A stretch of DNA of 64,000 nucleotides from contig CAZPNX010000012.1 in the NCBI GenBank assembly GCA_964588285.1, forward strand, positions 5,329 to 69,328. The letters are read 5' to 3'. The notes below the pieces were generated by a model that did not search any database, was not told the DNA's origin, and saw nothing but the letters and a program-made list of their open reading frames with translations. This DNA comes from an uncultured bacterium. GTDB lineage: Bacteria > Edwardsbacteria > AC1 > EtOH8. Position numbers and translations under genes: made by a program. Of the stretch, positions 23,774-50,049 are shown piece after piece (position 1 is the first letter of the stretch; every line of letters begins with the position of its first letter).

Positions 23774-24775
23774 TTAAGGGACTGCTATCTGACGCAGATA
23801 ACCGGCTGCCTCCTCGGGCGGAGTGGGGTTGATGTAGAAGCCGGAGCCTCGTTCGAATCCGGCCACCCGGGTGATGCGGGGCATGATCTCGATGTGCCAG
23901 TGGAACCACTCGGGCCCGGGCTGGTTGCAGGGCGAGGTGTGGATGACGAAGTTGTAGGGCGGACGGGAGATAGAAAGGTTGAGGCGCATCAGGGATTCCT
24001 TGAGAATGGCTGCCAGGCGGGGGATCTGCTCCGGCGGACAGGCCTCGAAGCTGGGCTGGTGCCTTTTGGGCAGTATCCAGGTCTCGAAGGGGAAGCGGGC
24101 GGCGAAGGGGACCACGGCCAGAAAATCGGGATTCTCGGCCACCAGCCGGCGGCGGTCCTCCAGCTCCTGGCGGACGATATCGCAGAAGATGCAGCGCTCT
24201 TTGTAACGGTAATAGTCCTGGGCCCCGTACATCTCCTCCTTGATGGCCTTGGGCACGATGGGAGTGGCGATCAACTGGCTGTGGCCGTGGTGGAGGGAGG
24301 CCCCGGCCCGGAAGCCGTGGTTCTTGAAGACCATCAGGTACTGGAGGCGGATGTCCTTCTTGAGATCCTGCATCCGGGCCACGAAGGCCGACAGCACCTT
24401 CTCGATATGGGAGGCCTCCTGGTCGGCCAGGGAGCGGTCGTGCTCCGGGGATTCGATGATGACCTCGTGGGCACCGACGCCGTTCATCTTGTCGTAAAGG
24501 CCCTCGCCGGTCTTGTCCAGCTCGCCCTCAACCTTGAGGGTGGGGAACTTGTTGGAGATGACCCTTACCTGCCAGCCCGGGCCGTTGGGCGGAGACCCCG
24601 GCTCCCGATAGGCCAGGATCTCGGGAGGGGTGGCCTGCTCGTTTCCCGGGCAGAAGGGACAGGGTCCGGCGGCCGCCTGGTCGGGGATCGTTTCATAGTC
24701 CATGGGGCGGCGGGTGCGCTCGGTGGCGATGATCACCCAGCGGCTGACGATGGGGTCCTTGCGTAGTTCGGGCAT
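23774..24775 (-). CDS. galT: Galactose-1-phosphate uridylyltransferase (class I GalT family)
   Basis: MPELRKDP, CPFCPGNE, GAHEVIIE, GASLHHGHSQ. Confidence 0.9.
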   Translation of the reverse strand: MPELRKDPIVSRWVIIATERTRRPMDYETIPDQAAAGPCPFCPGNEQATPPEILAYREPGSPPNGPGWQVRVISNKFPTLKVEGELDKTGEGLYDKMNGVGAHEVIIESPEHDRSLADQEASHIEKVLSAFVARMQDLKKDIRLQYLMVFKNHGFRAGASLHHGHSQLIATPIVPKAIKEEMYGAQDYYRYKERCIFCDIVRQELEDRRRLVAENPDFLAVVPFAARFPFETWILPKRHQPSFEACPPEQIPRLAAILKESLMRLNLSISRPPYNFVIHTSPCNQPGPEWFHWHIEIMPRITRVAGFERGSGFYINPTPPEEAAGYLRQIAVP

Positions 24776-24781
24776 AGGGGG

Positions 24782-24810
24782 ATTATAACGGTTCTGAAAG
24801 ATGATGTCAA
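24782..24810 (-). promoter_or_regulatory. Consensus sigma70 promoter of galT, probably leaderless
   Basis: Minus-strand TTGACA-N17-TATAAT with the ATG 6 nt downstream and no RBS. Confidence 0.8.
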
Positions 24811-41243: not shown

Positions 41244-41654
41244 CTATTCTACATAGACTTCCACCCGGTCGCCGGACTCTTCGTCCTCGACGTCCACCAT
41301 CTGGTAGCGGCCGTTGACGGCGAACTGGTCGAACAGGCTCTCGATGTCCTCGAAGCTTTCGGCGTCCAGCCTGATGCCCTTGGCCTCCATCTTTTCCTTG
41401 GCCTGCTCCGGCATCATCATGTGGAATTTGCCGCCCAGCTTTCCGGCGATCTTTAAAAGGGAGAGGGGCACGGTCACCCTGACCTTGGGCCTCTCCGAAC
41501 CCTTTTCGAAAACCCGGACCTTTAGCCAGTGGGCTCGGCCGTTCTGCAGGCCGGAACCGGGCGACTCGATGGCCGCCAAGAGCTTGGCTCCCTCCTCGGC
41601 GGTTATCTTCTTCTCCTCGACCATGCGTAGGATGCGGATGCGTTCTTCAGACAT
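41244..41654 (-). CDS. SHOCT-like domain protein (YvlB/LiaX N-terminus-like)
   Basis: MSEERIRILRMVEEKKITAEEGAKLL; WLKVRV...VRVTVPLSL; start set at ATG 41654. Confidence 0.75.
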   Translation of the reverse strand: MSEERIRILRMVEEKKITAEEGAKLLAAIESPGSGLQNGRAHWLKVRVFEKGSERPKVRVTVPLSLLKIAGKLGGKFHMMMPEQAKEKMEAKGIRLDAESFEDIESLFDQFAVNGRYQMVDVEDEESGDRVEVYVE

Positions 41655-41682
41655 GTGACTATTTCCTTTCAAAAACATTATC

Positions 41683-41811: not shown

Positions 41812-43080
41812 TCACCGAAGTTCTGTTTGGACCGCCGGGTCGAACCCGATGAAGCGGCGGAACGGTTCGGAGAACAGCAGGGGCAGGGCGATGAACCCGG
41901 GGATGATCATGCAGGCGGAGATGATGAGCCTGACCGGCAGGAACTCGGCCAGCACCCCGCCCAGGGCCATGCCCAGCGGCATCAGGCCGCCGGTGACCGT
42001 GCCCATCAGGGAGAAGACCTTGCCCCGCATGTCGGCCGGGGTGGCCATTTGCATCACCGAGCTGATGAGGGTGTTGACCACCGAGTTGCAGGCGGCCCCC
42101 AGCAGGCCCACGGCCAGCATGGGGTAGAACCCCACCAAGGGGAAAAGGGCCCACAGCAGACAGGTCAGGCCCAGGCCGGCGTTGAAGACGGCGAAACGCC
42201 GCTTTGGCGGTACCGGCAACGCCGACAGGGCCAGAAGGCCGGCCAGGAAACCGGCGGTGACCACGGCCATGGCCAGGCCGTACCTGGCCGGGCCCAGCCC
42301 GGCCGTCTTTTGGAACATGGGCAGTATCAGGATGAAGCCCATGTTGCCGAAGAGGTTCATGCCGGCGGCCAGCAGTATCAGGTCGCGCAAGCCGCGGATG
42401 CGCCAGACGAAATCCAGGCCGCCCTTGAAGTCCTTCCAGAAATGGAACTCGGGGGCGGCGTGGAACACCTTGGGGACGCGGATGAACAGCGAGGCCGCCC
42501 CGGCGTAGATGTAGGAAAGCCCGTTGAAAAGGAACAGCAGGGGGGGCCCCAGGAACTGGTAAATGAGGCCGCCGGCCGAGTTGCCCAGGATGCCGGTCGA
42601 GGTGCCGATCAGGCCGAACACCGAGTTGGCCCGGACTATTTGGTCGCGCTTGACTATATCCGGCAGCACCGAACCCACCGCCGGATTGAAGAAGGCGCCG
42701 CCCAGTCCCATGACCGTGCCGGCGGCGAAGACCATCCACACCTGGCAGCGCCCGGCCAGGGCGGCGGCGCCAACCAGGACCACGGCCAGGCCGCGGGCCA
42801 TGTCCGACCAGGCCAGAACCAGGCGGCGGTCGGCGCGGTCCACCCAGACGCCAGCGGCCGGGGAGACCAGGATGCGAGGCAGTGCGGTGGCGGCCATCAG
42901 GGCTCCCATGACGGCGGTGGAGCCGGTGGCGGCCAGGACCCAGAAGCCTAGGGCGATCTCATACACTACGTCCCCCAGCGAGGAGACCAGCTGTCCCTGC
43001 CACAGCAGCAGGAAGTTCCGATTCCAGAGCCCGGCGCACGCAGCGGCGGACGGCGGAGCAACGGCGGCGGCCTCGGCCAT
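41812..43080 (-). CDS. MFS transporter (DHA3/macrolide-efflux-like)
   Basis: RNFLLLWQGQLVSSLGD, GVWVDRADRR, RGKVFSL; 12-TM pattern. Confidence 0.88.
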   Translation of the reverse strand: MAEAAAVAPPSAAACAGLWNRNFLLLWQGQLVSSLGDVVYEIALGFWVLAATGSTAVMGALMAATALPRILVSPAAGVWVDRADRRLVLAWSDMARGLAVVLVGAAALAGRCQVWMVFAAGTVMGLGGAFFNPAVGSVLPDIVKRDQIVRANSVFGLIGTSTGILGNSAGGLIYQFLGPPLLFLFNGLSYIYAGAASLFIRVPKVFHAAPEFHFWKDFKGGLDFVWRIRGLRDLILLAAGMNLFGNMGFILILPMFQKTAGLGPARYGLAMAVVTAGFLAGLLALSALPVPPKRRFAVFNAGLGLTCLLWALFPLVGFYPMLAVGLLGAACNSVVNTLISSVMQMATPADMRGKVFSLMGTVTGGLMPLGMALGGVLAEFLPVRLIISACMIIPGFIALPLLFSEPFRRFIGFDPAVQTELR

Positions 43081-43087
43081 GTGTGCC

Positions 43088-43447
43088 TCAGGCGCCTCTC
43101 AGCTTTTTAGCCGCCTCGTCGGCCGACATCCGGCCCTCCTCGACTGCCTTAAGGATCTCGGCCCGACCGCTATCCGCCGTTTCCCCATGGTCCTTACTGA
43201 GGTCTTCTCCATGGCAGCAGCCTTCCCGGACGATCTTGAATTTATGCGAGGGGCGTCCGTCCCTCCAGGCCACCAGGTCGAGGATCTTCATCAGACCCCA
43301 GGCGATGAGCAGTATGGGCCAGTCCCTGGAGAAGGAGAAGTCGAAGCCAAGCAGGCCGTGGTTGGAGAGCAGCAGGAATATTCCCAGCAGAATCCAGAAA
43401 AGGCCCCACATGATCTTGCGGGGGCGGCTGAAGGAGAACCAGAACAT
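43088..43447 (-). CDS. LiaI/LiaF-like (DUF5668) membrane protein with C-terminal SHOCT-like domain
   Basis: WGLFWILLGIFLLLSNHG...WPILLIAWGL; C-terminal RAEILKAVEEGRMSADEAAKKL. Confidence 0.75.
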   Translation of the reverse strand: MFWFSFSRPRKIMWGLFWILLGIFLLLSNHGLLGFDFSFSRDWPILLIAWGLMKILDLVAWRDGRPSHKFKIVREGCCHGEDLSKDHGETADSGRAEILKAVEEGRMSADEAAKKLRGA

Positions 43448-43538: not shown

Positions 43539-43715
43539 TCAGATGCTGTCCAGGAGTTCCGATACGCCTATCAGGACCAGGATGACCGGCCAGTCCTGGC
43601 GGAATGAGAACCGGGCGTCGATGACGCCGTGGTTCGACAGCAGGATCAGAGTCCCGGCGGCCATGAAGGCCAGCCCCCAGACTGCCTTGCTGACGATGCG
43701 TTTTATGTGGCTCAT
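43539..43715 (-). CDS. Small DUF5668-like membrane protein (58 aa, not in the ORF track)
   Basis: Hand translation MSHIKRIVSKAVWGLAFMAAGTLILLSNHGVIDARFSFRQDWPVILVLIGVSELLDSI; AAGGAGG RBS; paralogous to the N-terminus of 43088-43447. Confidence 0.8.
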   Translation of the reverse strand: MSHIKRIVSKAVWGLAFMAAGTLILLSNHGVIDARFSFRQDWPVILVLIGVSELLDSI

Positions 43716-43733: not shown

Positions 43734-43925
43734 TCAGATCCCCAGAAGGGGGCGGCCCGACCCTGTCGATGCGGACCCGCCGGCCGCATCCCGGCCATTA
43801 CCATGCTCCCGGCCGGGCGCGCCATCCTGGCCGTCGTCGGCCGTCCTTGAAGATGTCCCGCCCCACGATGACTCGTCGTGGGGGGTGAGGTAGAGGAATC
43901 CATCGGCATCCGGCATGATGGCCAT
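43734..43925 (-). CDS. Small acidic Gly-rich hypothetical protein (63 aa)
   Basis: GGAG RBS overlapping the upstream stop; fills the operon gap; no recognisable domain. Confidence 0.45.
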   Translation of the reverse strand: MAIMPDADGFLYLTPHDESSWGGTSSRTADDGQDGAPGREHGNGRDAAGGSASTGSGRPLLGI

Positions 43926-43934
43926 GGCGCTCTC

Positions 43935-45197
43935 CTATCCGATGCTGATGTCGCCGCTGGTGGTTCTGACCGAGACGGCCACCCGGCCGGCGCCCAGCCT
44001 TCCCGTAAGCCTCCGGCTGGTCTGGTTCCGCTCTGCCAGCTCCAGGCTGCAGTCGATGTCCCCGCTGGCGGTGGAGGCCTCGAGCGACATGTCCGAACCG
44101 TCCGGGACCTCGAGCTCCACGTCCCCGCTGACGCTGGCCAGACGGATGTCGCCGCCCGGGGACGACCGGAGTTCTACGGAGATGTCGCCGGAGGTGGTGG
44201 AAGCCTTCAGGCCCTCCAGCATTTCCGCCTCTAGCTCCAGGTCCCCGGAGACGGTGCTCACCTCCGCCCGCCCGCGCTCCAGCTTCAGGGATAGGTCGCC
44301 GCTCACGGACTGGGCGACCAGCTCGCCGGAGAAATCGGCCGCCTCGATATCGCCGCTGGCTGTCTGTATCCTGACAGAGGCCTGGATGCACTTGGCCAAC
44401 TCGATGTCCCCCGAAGCGGTTGAGATCTCAATGGTCCCGGAGCAGCCGTCTAGCGATACCTCGCCCGAGGTGGAATTGATCTTGGCCCCGCCGGCGGCGC
44501 CGGTCACCTCGATCTCGCCCGAGGCCGTCCCCAGCTCCAGGGCCAGCCCCTTCGGCACCTCCAGTTCGAAGTCCACCTGGGCCCGGCGTTTCTTGGTCCA
44601 GGGCGGGCCCTCCAGCTTGACGCGCAGCGTGCCACCGTCGTTCTCGGCCACCACCTTTAGGGATTTCAGCCTTTCCTGGGCCTCGCCCTCGTCGTCGCCG
44701 TAAACGTGGACCTGGGCCTTGATAACGATCTGGTCGGTATCATTTCCGGTCACAGAGATCTCGCTGCGGGGCTGGCTCAGGGACAGCGCCCTGATCCCCT
44801 CGGCCGGGACGGTGACCACCTGCTCCTCCTCGGCGTGGTGGGCGCCGAAGCAGCACTCCACAATCTTGGGGAGGTCGGGCACCCGGGGCACCTTGGGGAC
44901 CCGGGGGATCCGGAAATGGATGTGCCTCTCCCGGTGCCGTTCCATCCTCTCCCGGGCCAGCTCCATCTTCTCCCGGGCGCGCTCCATGGCCTCGGCGGCC
45001 ACCAGGCCGGGGTTGACCTCGTCCATCACCCGGGCCACGATCCGGGCCGGGTCGGGGCCGTGTTCCCGGTATTCATCCTCATCACTGCTGGCCGGGGCAG
45101 GGGGCTCCTTGATGGCCGCCAGCAGCCCCTCGGCCTCCTGGGAGGTGATCTTGCCGGACTCCAGGAGCTTCAATATCCTCAAAGTTTCGTCAGACAT
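43935..45197 (-). CDS. DUF4097 beta-strand-repeat protein with N-terminal SHOCT-like domain (LiaX/YvlB-like)
   Basis: MSDETLRILKLLESGKITSQEAEGLL; repeated [ST][ATV]SG[DE][IV]x[LV] strands. Confidence 0.85.
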   Translation of the reverse strand: MSDETLRILKLLESGKITSQEAEGLLAAIKEPPAPASSDEDEYREHGPDPARIVARVMDEVNPGLVAAEAMERAREKMELARERMERHRERHIHFRIPRVPKVPRVPDLPKIVECCFGAHHAEEEQVVTVPAEGIRALSLSQPRSEISVTGNDTDQIVIKAQVHVYGDDEGEAQERLKSLKVVAENDGGTLRVKLEGPPWTKKRRAQVDFELEVPKGLALELGTASGEIEVTGAAGGAKINSTSGEVSLDGCSGTIEISTASGDIELAKCIQASVRIQTASGDIEAADFSGELVAQSVSGDLSLKLERGRAEVSTVSGDLELEAEMLEGLKASTTSGDISVELRSSPGGDIRLASVSGDVELEVPDGSDMSLEASTASGDIDCSLELAERNQTSRRLTGRLGAGRVAVSVRTTSGDISIG

Positions 45198-45236
45198 TTT
45201 CTGTTCCTTCTTCTGAATGTTTTCAGGCGTCCCCGC

Positions 45237-45329
45237 CTAGATGAACAGCATCAGGAACAAAGAGGAGATGACGCCCAGGGGGATCAGGCCCCCCAGGTCC
45301 ACCTGCCTCAGCCAGTTCGTGTGCTTCAT
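45237..45329 (-). CDS. 30-aa single-TM micro-protein (not in the ORF track)
   Basis: Hand translation MKHTNWLRQVDLGGLIPLGVISSLFLMLFI; GGAGAG RBS; sits between DUF2089 and DUF4097. Confidence 0.6.
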   Translation of the reverse strand: MKHTNWLRQVDLGGLIPLGVISSLFLMLFI

Positions 45330-45361
45330 TGTTCTCTCCAAATTATAAGGTTTTTAGAATG

Positions 45362-45727
45362 TTAGCTTCTGAGCTTGTTCAGCTCCTCGATGGCCTGGGC
45401 GGCGGTCAGCCGGCCCTCCTCCAGCTCCCTGAGTATCTCCTCGCGGCTGCGTCCGGCGGCGTCCATCCTTGAGAGGGCAGCGATGACCTCGTCCAGCCTG
45501 GCCCGGACGGTGGGGTAGGAGACCTGCAGCCTTTTCTCCATCTCCCTGATGCTGCCGCGTGAGATGACGAAGGTCCTGATGAAGGACAGCTGCTCCTCGG
45601 ACAGGCTGCCCAGCGGGGTGGGGGTGAACTCGCCGCGGACCACGGTGTCGCACGAGGTGCACTTGAGCTCGGAGACCATGGTGGGCGAACCGCAGGAGGG
45701 GCAGAGGTGCGGCATCTGCTTCGGCAT
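45362..45727 (-). CDS. DUF2089-family protein (Zn ribbon + HTH + SHOCT-like tail)
   Basis: CPSCG...CTSCDTVVRGEF; FIRTFVISRGSIREMEKRLQVSYPTVRARLDEVI; REEILRELEEGRLTAAQA. Confidence 0.9.
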   Translation of the reverse strand: MPKQMPHLCPSCGSPTMVSELKCTSCDTVVRGEFTPTPLGSLSEEQLSFIRTFVISRGSIREMEKRLQVSYPTVRARLDEVIAALSRMDAAGRSREEILRELEEGRLTAAQAIEELNKLRS

Positions 45728-45739
45728 GTCCGTCTACCT

Positions 45740-45880
45740 TCAGGCGGATTTGTTGGGGGAGGGAAGGCCGAGGATCATGCCGGCCAGCGACGCCCAAAGG
45801 AGGACGTTAAACTGGTCCCTTTGTGCGGATTCGGCAATGGTGCCGGCGATAGAGGGTGTGGCGAAGGGTTGGGTGTTCAT
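45740..45880 (-). CDS. 46-aa micro-peptide, paralog B (not in the ORF track)
   Basis: Hand translation MNTQPFATPSIAGTIAESAQRDQFNVLLWASLAGMILGLPSPNKSA; GAGG RBS; similar to paralog A. Confidence 0.65.
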   Translation of the reverse strand: MNTQPFATPSIAGTIAESAQRDQFNVLLWASLAGMILGLPSPNKSA

Positions 45881-45892
45881 GGCTTGACCTCT

Positions 45893-46030
45893 TCAGTTTG
45901 ATTTGTTCGAGGCGGGGTTCAGGATGCCGTTTATTATGGATGTCCAGAGGAAGACTTCGAAGGATGCGGAACTGGAGTCGGACACAGGTGCTACCGATGC
46001 TGTCAGAGCTTTTCGAATCATCTGATCCAT
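45893..46030 (-). CDS. 45-aa micro-peptide, paralog A (not in the ORF track)
   Basis: Hand translation MDQMIRKALTASVAPVSDSSSASFEVFLWTSIINGILNPASNKSN; GGAG RBS; first ORF after a consensus promoter. Confidence 0.65.
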   Translation of the reverse strand: MDQMIRKALTASVAPVSDSSSASFEVFLWTSIINGILNPASNKSN

Positions 46031-46087
46031 CTTCGCGTCTCCATTTAAAGTTTAATACGGTTAATACTTCTTGCTTGTTTCATTATA

Positions 46088-46116
46088 ATTATACCATAAA
46101 TAATAAACATTGTCAA
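46088..46116 (-). promoter_or_regulatory. Perfect-consensus sigma70 promoter of the micro-peptide/DUF2089 operon
   Basis: Minus-strand TTGACA-ATGTTTATTATTTATGG-TATAAT (17-nt spacer) with an AT-rich UP-element-like tract upstream. Confidence 0.85.
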
Positions 46117-46172
46117 GTATAATATTAAAAATTTTAATAATAAAATTAAATTAATTTAAGTAAATTCACAAT

Positions 46173-46196
46173 AAAAAACAGCCTTTCGGCTGTTTT
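46173..46196 (-). terminator. Intrinsic terminator of the ROK gene
   Basis: Minus-strand AAAACAGCC-GAAA-GGCTGTTTTTT. Confidence 0.8.
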
Positions 46197-46213
46197 CTGT
46201 AAAATATTTAATT

Positions 46214-47158
46214 TCAATCTGTTACAGAGATAAGAGCTGCTCCCAGAGCTCCAGCTGTCTGGCCAAGGATGGCTGGTAGAATCTTGATTCTTTTAATGTT
46301 GTAAGGCATGGCTCTCTTTGTCATTTCATCGATGGCCGGCTTCAGAATGATTTTTCCGGCCTGGGCTACTCCACCGCCAATGACCACAGCCTGAGGATTG
46401 AAGATATTGGCTATGTTTGCCAGCCCTACTCCCAAAAGCCGGCCGGTTTCGCCCAAGGCAAGCGCGGCTTGGCTGTCCCGCCTTCTGGCTCGTTCCACTA
46501 TTTCCTTGACGGTGATGCCGGTTTCGATCCTCAGATGTGCTCTGAATCTGAGGTCGTTATAACGATTGATTATGGCTTGGGCGCCGATCAAAGACTCCAA
46601 GCATCCCTGGTTGCCGCATTTGCACTTGGGCCCGTCGCTCTTTATCGCCATGTGTCCCAGTTCGCCGGCGCCGCCGCTTGCTCCCCGATAGAGTCGGCCA
46701 TTTATAATGATTCCGCCGCCGACTCCGGTGCCCAAGGTCAGGCCGATGACGTTGTCAAGCCCCTTGGCCGCGCCCAGCCTCTGTTCGGCCACCACAAAGG
46801 CATTGGCGTCGTTTTCAATGGTAATCTGCAGGCGGTGTTTGAAAAGCCGTTTTTCCAAGAGGCGTTTCAAGGGCACGGCGCCCTGCCAGCCCGGCAGGTT
46901 GGGCGAGTTACGTACCACGCCTCGGTCCACCAGCCCGGCCGAGCCAATGCCTGCTGATTTGACCTGATACCCTGCATTTTGGGCATCTGACAGGCGGGAC
47001 TCAATCTCCAGGGCGATGTTCTCCACCACCCGGGCCACGCCGGCCTGGGCCTGGGTGGGGCGGGAGCCGCGGTATAGGATGCGGGGGGAGGGGAGGGCCA
47101 GCAGCACCGACTTGATGTTGGTGCCCCCTAGGTCGATCCCGATGACGGCCTTTTTCAT
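46214..47158 (-). CDS. ROK-family sugar kinase (glucokinase-like)
   Basis: GIDLGGTNIK, ENDANA, LGTGVGGG, GELGHM...CKCGNQGCLE. Confidence 0.92.
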   Translation of the reverse strand: MKKAVIGIDLGGTNIKSVLLALPSPRILYRGSRPTQAQAGVARVVENIALEIESRLSDAQNAGYQVKSAGIGSAGLVDRGVVRNSPNLPGWQGAVPLKRLLEKRLFKHRLQITIENDANAFVVAEQRLGAAKGLDNVIGLTLGTGVGGGIIINGRLYRGASGGAGELGHMAIKSDGPKCKCGNQGCLESLIGAQAIINRYNDLRFRAHLRIETGITVKEIVERARRRDSQAALALGETGRLLGVGLANIANIFNPQAVVIGGGVAQAGKIILKPAIDEMTKRAMPYNIKRIKILPAILGQTAGALGAALISVTD

Positions 47159-48925: not shown

Positions 48926-49783
48926 CTAGGCCGCTAAACATATGGGCAGCGGTTCTTTTGTTTCCGGGGCCGGCGGCCTGTAGCCCAGGGAGCTGTGAGG
49001 CCGAAACGTATTGTAGTCTTGCCGCCACCGCGCCGTCAGGACCCGCGCTTCCAATACCGTGTCCAACAACTCCCGGTTGAGGAGCTCGTCCCGGAACTTG
49101 CCGTTGAATGATTCGATGTACCCGTTCTCCCAGGGACTGCCCGGCTCAATAAACAGCGTCCTGACCCCGATCCGCCCGAACCATTCCCTGACCTTGCGGG
49201 CGGTAAACTCGGCCCCGTTGTCCGATCGTATGCACTCCGGCAAGCCACGCCTCATAAACAAATCCTGCAGCCGCTCCAGCACGTCTTCGGCCCTGAGGCT
49301 CCGGGCCACGTCTATGGCCAGGCATTCCCTGGTGTACTCGTCGATTATGGTCAGGAACCTAAGCGGCAGCCCGTCGCTGGTCCGCCTGTGGACGAAGTCG
49401 TAGCTCCACACGTGATTGGGCCTTTGTGGCCTCAGCCGGACGCAGGTGCCGTCGTTCAGCCAAAGCCGTCGCCGAGGTTTCTGCTTCTGCAGCACCTTCA
49501 GGCCCTCGGCCCGCCAGATCCGCTCCACCCGCTTGTGGTTGACTCGCCAGCCGCCTTGTTTCAAAAGAGCCGTGATCCGGCGGTAACCGTACCGCCCGTA
49601 GTCCTTGGCCAGACGGACTATGTCCGCTGTTAACCTTGGTTCGTCGTCCGCCTCCCGGGGCCGGTAGCCTTGGGTCGACCGCGCCTGCCCCAGCGCACGG
49701 CAGGCCCGACGTTCGGAAACGGCCAGCTTGGTACATGCCTCGGTGATCGCCCGGCGCCGTTTGGCCGGGCTCAGAAGTTTCCC
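48926..49783 (-). CDS. IS3 transposase OrfB (DDE), expressed by -1 frameshift
   Basis: YGYRRI, WSYDFV, IRSDNG, NGYIESFNG; slippery G-GGA-AAC at 49777-49783 followed by a GCCCGGC/GCCGGGC hairpin. Confidence 0.9.
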   Translation of the reverse strand, partial: GKLLSPAKRRRAITEACTKLAVSERRACRALGQARSTQGYRPREADDEPRLTADIVRLAKDYGRYGYRRITALLKQGGWRVNHKRVERIWRAEGLKVLQKQKPRRRLWLNDGTCVRLRPQRPNHVWSYDFVHRRTSDGLPLRFLTIIDEYTRECLAIDVARSLRAEDVLERLQDLFMRRGLPECIRSDNGAEFTARKVREWFGRIGVRTLFIEPGSPWENGYIESFNGKFRDELLNRELLDTVLEARVLTARWRQDYNTFRPHSSLGYRPPAPETKEPLPICLAA

Positions 49784-50049
49784 GAGGCCGCCTCCTTGAG
49801 TATCTGGTTGTCCAAAGACAGGTTGGCCACCAGCTTCTTCAGCCGGGCGTTCTCCTGCTCCATTTCCTTCATCCGCCTGGCCTGGTCCACCCGCAGGCCT
49901 CCGTATTCCTTGCGCCACCGGTAGTAGGTCAGCTTGCTCACCCCGATCTTACGGCTGGCCTCCTCGACGCTGGTCCCCTGGTTTATCAGCAACTCCGCCT
50001 CCCGCAGCTTGCCGATGATCTCCTCCGGCTTGTACTTGACCTGTGGCAT
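49771..50049 (-). CDS. IS3 transposase OrfA
   Basis: KYKPEEIIGKLREAE...TYYRWRKEYGGL...EQENARLKKLVANLSLDNQILKE (HTH + leucine zipper). Confidence 0.9.
   Translation of the reverse strand: MPQVKYKPEEIIGKLREAELLINQGTSVEEASRKIGVSKLTYYRWRKEYGGLRVDQARRMKEMEQENARLKKLVANLSLDNQILKEAASGNF

Follow-up and report, generated by a model that had tools for sequence, protein, structure and literature searches.

The window analysed here is a stretch of 64,000 nucleotides (nt) from an uncultured bacterium of the Edwardsbacteria lineage (GenBank assembly GCA_964588285.1, contig CAZPNX010000012.1, positions 5,329 to 69,328 of the forward strand). On its minus strand, two tandem small open reading frames (sORF1 and sORF2), encoding peptides of 45 and 46 amino acids (aa), head an operon for a DUF2089 regulator, a Toastrack (DUF4097) protein, and proteins with LiaI-LiaF-TM and SHOCT-like domains (Table 1). 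A sequence-only reading, made earlier from the letters without database searches, had described them as tandem ORFs with their own ribosome-binding sites behind a perfect TTGACA-N17-TATAAT promoter. Both ORFs were found, with the Shine-Dalgarno motifs GGAG and GAGG, and the promoter matched at 12 of 12 positions with a TG-extended -10 hexamer. Each sORF is followed by a 12-nt spacer, the second of which ends at the ATG of the DUF2089 gene (45727). The sORFs had also been called unannotated, which is only partly true because gene callers predict both of them in the public Logan assembly of the same organism (L001); relatives are listed in JGI records under the name 'hypothetical protein', and further ones are in NCBI.

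The two peptides share 16 identical columns in a MAFFT alignment, mostly in the C-terminal pattern F-x-V-x-L-W-x-S-x4-I-L-x-P-x2-N-K-S, in agreement with the proposed alignment of their C-terminal halves, and their Smith-Waterman score of 48 was equalled by 3 of 20,000 shuffles. As BLASTP with default statistics returned no match between sORF1 and sORF2, their similarity is shown by the shuffling and by the family described below. A hidden Markov model (HMM) of this family matched only these two copies in the window (sORF1, E = 6.5e-14). In the window, sORF1, sORF2 and the DUF2089 gene also share one reading frame (45365-46030, minus strand), separated by TGA and TGA-AGG-TAG. Stop-codon readthrough or a fusion of the three was rejected, as relatives have spacers of 11, 12 or 13 nt and do not keep the frame, so the shared frame is probably a coincidence.

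A lineage-restricted family upstream of DUF2089 genes

A profile built from the two peptides retrieved only themselves and one close relative. With a 14-member profile, 14 proteins were obtained in a word-index search of a 5.8-billion-sequence index, and HMMER, run exhaustively over 1.84 billion cluster representatives, gave 13 at E < 1e-3, all of 43-60 aa, and nothing else; the family is therefore tiny. It comprises about 21 distinct peptides of 42-47 aa, confined to Edwardsbacteria/UBP2-like contigs, with named records assigned to Candidatus Edwardsbacteria and 'UBP2'. The members occur as a single copy or a tandem pair, directly upstream of the DUF2089 gene wherever the downstream gene is on the contig, apart from the intervening ORF of three loci listed below; the short contigs P0137 and P0141/L176 either end before that gene or carry one that could not be identified.

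The presence of a conserved ORF upstream of DUF2089 in relatives had been named beforehand as a test, and such an ORF was found. A total of 132 DUF2089 homologues were recovered. Syntenic relatives keep the order ROK, gap, DUF2089, Toastrack, LiaI, LiaF-TM/SHOCT, a variable major facilitator superfamily (MFS) gene and SHOCT, and the gap between ROK and DUF2089 contained motif-bearing sORFs in every case. Two sORFs were found in L004 and L095 (DUF2089 identity 81-86%) and in L175, one in L015 and L016 (84%) and in L179, at least one in L096 (83%; the sequence further upstream is N-masked), one divergent copy in L007 (65%), and one followed by an unrelated ORF of 50-68 aa in L011, L018 and L177 (62-66%). 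Based on shared motifs, presumed orthologues of sORF1 occur in L002, L004 and L095, and those of sORF2 in L002, L004, L095, L096, L015 and L016. The peptides are paralogues, as the sequence-only reading had proposed, and each of the two types has apparent orthologues in L004 and L095. In L018 (753-956) and L177 (2154-2360), a distinct conserved ORF of 67-68 aa (...SIDRPxxSTxxxIWI) replaces the second family copy, while in L011 an unrelated 50-aa ORF lies between the sORF and DUF2089.

When the family HMM was applied to six-frame translations of 179 loci, matches were obtained in Edwardsbacteria/UBP2-like loci only, and the roughly 150 DUF2089 loci that come from other phyla, such as Bacillota, Binatia, Chloroflexota, Elusimicrobiota and Armatimonadota, had no member. 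A small ORF ahead of DUF2089 as a general rule was also rejected, as 35 of 127 distant loci had an ORF ending nearby, apparently at random and with no shared family, the exceptions being duplicate or near-identical loci and one possible pair of 78-aa membrane proteins (L075/L078). The sORF peptides had no match in Pfam, NCBIfam, PADLOC or PDB, consistent with the initial statement that they belong to no known family, and the family profile gave only an insignificant match against solved structures (E = 0.43). A standalone divergent SHOCT-like domain ('ILDSKSTTPEK...LLW' compared with 'ILxxLEEGKITxEEAxxLL') was discarded (hhalign against the SHOCT-like domains of this operon: probability 0.07%, one aligned column), and hmmscan of the sORFs at E up to 10 returned no SHOCT family (PF22746). 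Overall, the genes are genuine, and the family is undescribed and lineage-restricted.

Selection on the coding sequence and predicted peptide structure

In the 18-codon core of the seven sORF2-type copies, the ratio of non-synonymous to synonymous differences per site (pN/pS) was mostly 0.1-0.4. Synonymous differences (pS) reached 0.85, near saturation, while non-synonymous differences did not exceed 0.25, and the differences in the core fell at 166 third, 75 first and 41 second codon positions. When the sORFs were compared with those of L002, the closest relative, 4 synonymous and 1 non-synonymous changes fell in the C-terminal halves, and 5 and 11, respectively, in the N-terminal halves. For sORF1 separately, the C-terminal half had 1 synonymous and 0 non-synonymous changes, and the N-terminal half 5 non-synonymous and 0 synonymous, too few to call positive selection. 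Constraint on the C-terminal halves is comparable to that on DUF2089 (pN/pS 0.14-0.25), and the N-terminal halves are relaxed. As the core is under purifying selection with third-position changes dominant, the substitution pattern indicates that the peptides are translated and that their amino-acid sequence matters. Translation of both ORFs, which had been argued at the outset from protein-level likeness, is thus supported by selection at the amino-acid level, and the codon-biased substitutions differ from plain nucleotide conservation; a DNA repeat without coding constraint was ruled out by the codon-position bias and pN/pS.

The peptides consist of a poorly conserved, flexible N-terminal half and a conserved, predicted C-terminal helix of about 19 residues. 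An invariant Trp is found between residues 27 and 31, with 14-17 residues separating it from the C-terminal end. Relative to this Trp, the pattern reads hydrophobic (-5), Asn/Asp (-4), three hydrophobic residues, Trp, x, Ser, Leu, Ala, x, x, Ile/Met, Leu, Gly, Leu, Pro (+11). Columns -5, -3, -2, -1, 0, +3, +4, +7, +8 and +10 are hydrophobic and columns -4, +1, +2, +5, +6 and +9 polar, with Ser/Lys at +2, Gly at +9 and Pro at +11 in 17 of 21 aligned members. The other four lack this Pro or have it shifted, namely three sORF1-type copies (at +10 in the window sORF1) and the sole sORF of L007. This conservation has a helical periodicity with a Gly-Leu-Pro cap and, judged from the alignment columns, would fit a helix packed against a partner. 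Based on the family alignment, AlphaFold2 predicted for sORF2 a single helix over residues 18-36 with a predicted local distance difference test (pLDDT) score of about 75 (65 on average), and helices at 4-12 and 19-37 for the other subfamily. The changes between the window and L002 cluster just before the helix, where VSDSS is replaced by GSEAG at residues 16-20 of sORF1 (45945-45985, minus strand) and ESAQR by DPVRK at residues 17-21 of sORF2 (45815-45830, minus strand).

The best 19-residue Kyte-Doolittle mean, located over the C-terminal helix, was at most 1.4, the usual threshold for a transmembrane (TM) helix being about 1.6, and several members have D, K, R, E or Q within the helix. Most members have a net charge near 0 and a pI of about 5-6.5, and the charge lies between -2 and +2 in 18 of the 19 computed. 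The N-terminal halves are polar or rich in Pro, Ser or Gly, and no N-terminal hydrophobic stretch or double-glycine motif was visible in the sequences by inspection, no signal-peptide predictor having been used. From these properties, the peptides are predicted to lack a TM segment, on account of the low hydropathy and the charged residues inside the helix, and not to be cationic. On these properties, the early suggestion that they are membrane-active was not upheld.

Promoter, leader and downstream genes

As the intrinsic terminator at 46173-46192 ends the upstream ROK-kinase gene, the sORF operon forms a separate transcription unit. A consensus terminator scanner did not list this hairpin, which, with its T-run, is also kept in L002, L004, L016 and L095. 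The AT-rich stretch between terminator and promoter is a candidate UP element. Promoter-like sites with at most one mismatch numbered 4 in the 64 kb, compared to 0.07 expected, and the same promoter, spacer bases TTGACAaTtTTGAtTtTTTATGnTATAAT included, was present in all 10 relatives that have unmasked upstream DNA on the contig. Its -10 hexamer is repeated in tandem, and the start of sORF1 lies about 50 nt downstream.

Directly after the -10 hexamer, a block TATAATnATAATGaAACAAGCAAGAA...CGTA (46031-46093, minus strand) is conserved as sequence in L002, L004, L095, L015, L016, L096, L007 and L175; the conserved block near the promoter is also denoted ATAATGAAACAAGCAAGAA. It could reflect constraint on the initial transcribed region or, at the level of a guess, serve as an operator that DUF2089 itself might bind. 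The 5' untranslated region (UTR) has a conserved sequence, yet no consensus RNA structure was found in a 9-locus alignment. A known RNA element was also rejected: an Rfam scan of 45000-46700 returned sub-threshold chance matches only, and the RNA of the whole leader and sORFs had a folding z of -1.4.

Table 1. Features of the sORF operon and its upstream region, in order of transcription.
Feature	Position	Strand	Size and basis
Intrinsic terminator of the upstream ROK-kinase gene	46173..46192	(-)	CAGCC-GAAA-GGCTG then T6, read directly
AT-rich stretch (about 26-29% GC) upstream of -35, with conserved AATATTTTAATAT-type block	46117..46172	(-)	Composition; alignments of relatives
Sigma-70-type promoter	46088..46116	(-)	TTGACA, 17-nt spacer, TG-extended TATAAT; 12/12 match
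Initial transcribed region and 5' UTR	46031..46087	(-)	Conserved block ATAATGaAACAAGCAAGAA...CGTA; sORF1 Shine-Dalgarno GGAG
sORF1	45893..46030	(-)	45 aa; GGAG 9 nt before ATG; more divergent type (...GILN[P/L]xSxNSN)
sORF2	45740..45880	(-)	46 aa; GAGG 8 nt before ATG; conserved type (DQFNVLLWxSLAxxILGLP)
DUF2089 regulator	45362..45727	(-)	121 aa; zinc ribbon and helix-turn-helix (HTH) (Pfam PF22747, PF09862 2.3e-21); ATG 12 nt past sORF2 stop
Hydrophobic ORF between DUF2089 and Toastrack genes	45237-45341	(-)	34 aa; called as 30 aa in L001
Toastrack (DUF4097, LiaG-like), N-terminal SHOCT-like domain	43935..45197	(-)	420 aa; Pfam PF13349 2.8e-32, PF22746
Conserved small ORF (MAIMPDA...GRPLLGI) between Toastrack and LiaI genes	43734..43925	(-)	63 aa; called in L001
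LiaI-LiaF-TM small membrane protein	43539..43715	(-)	58 aa; Pfam PF18917 6.8e-11
LiaF-TM protein, C-terminal SHOCT-like domain	43088..43447	(-)	119 aa; Pfam PF18917 (3.5e-8), PF22570, PF22746
MFS transporter (MFS_1/MFS_3)	41812..43080	(-)	422 aa; Pfam; variable operon part
SHOCT-like-domain protein, last gene	41244..41678	(-)	ORF 144 aa (136 aa in L001); Pfam PF22746 1.5e-10

To our knowledge, DUF2089 has no experimentally determined function; the regulator carries a SHOCT-like C-terminal tail (by eye). The Toastrack protein matched NCBIfam LiaG at 8.6e-32, under the cut-off of that model, and the LiaI-LiaF-TM domain is the former DUF5668. The MFS gene is present in L004 and L006 but absent from the sORF-bearing operons of L007, L011 and L095, and the last-gene SHOCT-like protein is kept in L004, L007, L011 and L095. 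Based on Pfam, the operon (the operon, not the sORFs) corresponds to the PspA-free Toastrack/LiaI-LiaF-TM/SHOCT-like module. Such neighbourhoods with an HTH regulator are described from comparative genomics by Ravi et al. (mSystems 2024; PMC11237479), where the three domains are proposed to assemble sub-membrane signalling complexes. A link of the operon to envelope stress is suggested by the domain families of the neighbouring genes only. Anti-phage defence was rejected, PADLOC having given one weak LmuB-like match on DUF2089 (E = 7e-4) and nothing more.

Two further small ORFs lie within the operon. The hydrophobic 34-aa ORF is probably not a conserved gene, and the gap between DUF2089 and Toastrack in L004, L007 and L011 (43-57 nt) leaves no room for it. 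The 63-aa ORF, which starts about 10 nt past the Toastrack stop, has homologues of 65 aa in L095 (4812-5009) and 53 aa in L004 (7711-7872) and is absent in L007 and L011. These ORFs have the N-terminus MAIMPDA... and the C-terminus ...GR(P/I)(L/P)L(G/S)I with a low-complexity stretch in between, and they may encode another micro-protein of the operon that has gone unrecognised.

Elsewhere in the window, another perfect TTGACA-17-TATAAT promoter lies at 24782-24810 (minus strand), upstream of an ORF of 333 aa (23774-24775, minus strand) that resembles a galactose-1-phosphate uridylyltransferase by eye (HxHxQ-type motif). As its ATG is just 6 nt past the -10 hexamer, a leaderless mRNA is suggested. 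About 2 kb from the ROK gene, an overlapping transposase ORF pair (48926-50049, minus strand; 92 aa at 49771-50049 and 330 aa at 48926-49918) has, judged by eye, the arrangement typical of an IS3-family element that uses programmed frameshifting.

Possible roles of the peptides

The reading favoured here, to which about an even chance is given, is that the sORFs encode small cytoplasmic helical proteins co-made with the regulator and acting in trans in the DUF2089/Toastrack/LiaI-LiaF-TM/SHOCT module. The strong conserved promoter would transcribe them as first cistron(s), and they would be translated in tight series, over 11-13-nt spacers, with the DUF2089 zinc-ribbon-HTH regulator. The peptides could then act as cytoplasmic or peripherally membrane-associated helical partners in the PspA-free module. 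The hydrophobic face of the helix would most likely bind the co-translated regulator, or the peptides might bind each other and then the regulator, and this binding would tune the activity of the regulator or its capture by the membrane scaffold. Translated immediately after the sORFs, DUF2089 would be the most economical partner.

We infer both the trans action and the partner from the gene arrangement and the conservation pattern. Trans action is favoured because the conservation of the helical face spans about 30 residues, because diverged tandem paralogues persist as distinct copy types (window, L002, L004, L095, L175), because each cistron has its own Shine-Dalgarno motif and an 11-13-nt spacer, a layout common for co-made and often mutually binding proteins, and because a conserved cis-regulatory RNA is absent. 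Several observations weigh against this interpretation. AlphaFold2 confidence is only moderate (mean pLDDT 65), and the helix has a low hydrophobic moment (0.09-0.30), so that the term 'amphipathic' is weakly supported. Tight coupling to the regulator is not universal, since 240-340 nt and another ORF separate the sORF from DUF2089 in L011, L018 and L177. Moreover, the position at the head of the operon, the conserved C-terminal block, the variable N-terminus and the Trp-x10-Pro spacing would, as sequence features, also fit a regulatory nascent peptide.

A cis-acting leader or arrest peptide is accordingly the main alternative, though an unlikely one. The 19-residue block would pause translation from within the exit tunnel at or after Leu-Pro, and signal-responsive elongation or termination of the sORFs would control re-initiation at DUF2089 12 nt downstream. 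The constant small size of these operon-heading ORFs, the Trp at residues 27-31, which is invariant, the Pro at +11 in 17 of 21 members and the focus of conservation on the C-terminal block all agree with it. The SecM arrest motif is likewise followed by few more codons, and TnaC-type arrest peptides form a comparable class. The F-x4-W-x10-P skeleton is spaced as in SecM (150-FxxxxWIxxxxGIRAGP-166; PMC10951299), where Arg163 and Pro166 are critical (PMC10951299). However, the Arg163/RAG element of SecM is absent and the family has L-G-L at this place, 4 of 21 members lack the Pro or have it at another position, and hydropathy and sequences reveal no N-terminal signal or TM segment that could act as a force sensor. 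In the window, a hairpin joins the Shine-Dalgarno motif and AUG of DUF2089 to the G-M-I-L-G-L codons of sORF2 (-33.6 kcal/mol for the folded 93-nt segment), but a conserved masking hairpin was rejected: across 14 junctions, masking was neither conserved nor selected (mean rank 0.51 compared to synonymous recodings), and the pairing partner shifts between loci. The 12-nt spacer is too short for a terminator/antiterminator or a Rho-loading region, the leader has no conserved RNA structure, long-kept diverged tandem duplicates are unusual for leader peptides, and conservation reaches about -14 from the Trp with helical periodicity. A bolder version, in which the sORFs form a new nascent-peptide class, is a little less probable still. 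Here the Trp and Leu-Pro would mediate a pause, re-initiation at DUF2089 would depend on a cellular signal, for example a metabolite, the status of the membrane or a compound that targets the ribosome, and the tandem copies would act as serial checkpoints, a SecM/TnaC-like logic arisen independently in an uncultured candidate phylum to control a Toastrack-type stress operon.

Of similarly low probability is a role as peripheral membrane-binding helices that sense lipid-packing defects and recruit or release the Toastrack/SHOCT scaffold, a version of the favoured reading in which DUF2089 is not the target. The helix is hydrophobic and Trp-centred with Ser/Thr flanks, and the neighbouring genes carry domains that PMC11237479 proposes for sub-membrane complexes; against this stand the low hydrophobic moment (0.09-0.30), the lack of the cationic flank common in membrane-targeting helices, and the quite polar helices of some members (L175 sORF-a, L011). 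Least probable, by a clear distance, are exported peptides, leaderless bacteriocin-like or signalling, that would be secreted by the MFS protein and sensed or neutralised by the Lia-like proteins. Precedents are the bawcin cluster, in which the 48-aa BawA is encoded next to BawC, a DUF2089 protein (PMC10707071), and saprophyticin S, where orf9 encodes a DUF2089 protein whose aureocin A53 homologue is required for full resistance (PMC13176088); an MFS_3-type transporter is also present in the window operon. Nevertheless, the family profile reached an hhalign probability of only 0.3% against bawcin, the peptides are near-neutral whereas bawcin has a pI of 10.12 and eight cationic residues, and one or two helices are predicted rather than a four-helix saposin fold. 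Among the operon proteins scanned with Pfam, there was no ABC, HlyD or PH-domain protein, no modification enzyme and no peptidase-type transporter domain; the MFS gene is missing from several sORF-bearing operons (L007, L011, L095), and neither an N-terminal hydrophobic stretch nor a double-glycine motif is visible. A leaderless bacteriocin was rejected on sequence, charge, fold and cluster content. Precursors of ribosomally synthesized and post-translationally modified peptides (RiPPs) combine a conserved leader with a core that varies, and a modification enzyme or a transporter with a peptidase domain is encoded nearby. The variable N-terminus and conserved C-terminus of the sORFs are the reverse, and, with no modification enzyme among the operon proteins scanned, the sORFs do not fit a RiPP precursor. 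The earlier idea that the Lia-like proteins and the MFS exporter act on signal or precursor peptides is thus not supported, given the near-neutral charge, the lack of a modification enzyme among the proteins scanned and the operons without the MFS gene.

Compared with known systems, the operon shares its domains and a DNA-binding regulator with the PspA-free Toastrack/LiaI-LiaF-TM/SHOCT neighbourhoods, for which the accessible part of the description mentions no operon-heading small protein (PMC11237479), and the sORF family is a lineage-specific addition. It resembles SecM-type systems in being an upstream ORF with a conserved C-terminal block, matching F/W/I/P spacing and few codons before the stop. 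It differs in its consensus (F/L-N-V-L-L-W-T-S-L-A-x-R/Q-I/M-L-G-L-P, with L-G-L in place of RAG), in having neither a signal sequence nor a conserved Shine-Dalgarno-masking hairpin, and in its tandem diverged copies and 12-nt spacer. The bawcin, saprophyticin S and aureocin A53 clusters likewise combine a DUF2089 gene with a nearby leaderless peptide gene, about 45-50 codons long. Their producers are Gram-positive, and bawcin itself has four helices, eight cationic residues and a pI of 10.12 (PMC10707071), whereas the sORF family comes from an uncultured candidate phylum, is unrelated in sequence and is not cationic. In the cell-wall-stress operon vraU-vraT-vraS-vraR of S. aureus, vraU is an uncharacterised first cistron before LiaF-like (VraT/YvqF) genes for which no role was found (PMC3893269); that operon has a two-component regulator instead of DUF2089, and no homology is expected. 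Many characterised signalling modulators of up to 50 aa are single-pass membrane proteins. Modulators of this size, such as the stress-induced small proteins of E. coli covered in PMC11429745, are similar in length, stress-linked context and presumed regulator binding, but the sORF family is unrelated to them in sequence and has no predicted TM segment.

Stress systems with small proteins attached to them are already familiar. As the family is confined to one uncultured lineage and about 21 sequences, the general impact of the finding is moderate; it would be substantially higher if the nascent-peptide reading were true. The case also illustrates that genes of fewer than 50 codons can be validated by comparative genomics alone, through the combination of synonymous saturation and amino-acid conservation. 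For the Toastrack-type operon of this lineage, the sORFs represent a new component, a selected family of micro-proteins of about 45 residues that is always first in the operon, and, as a putative small obligate partner, it may offer a practical handle on DUF2089 and the Toastrack scaffolds.

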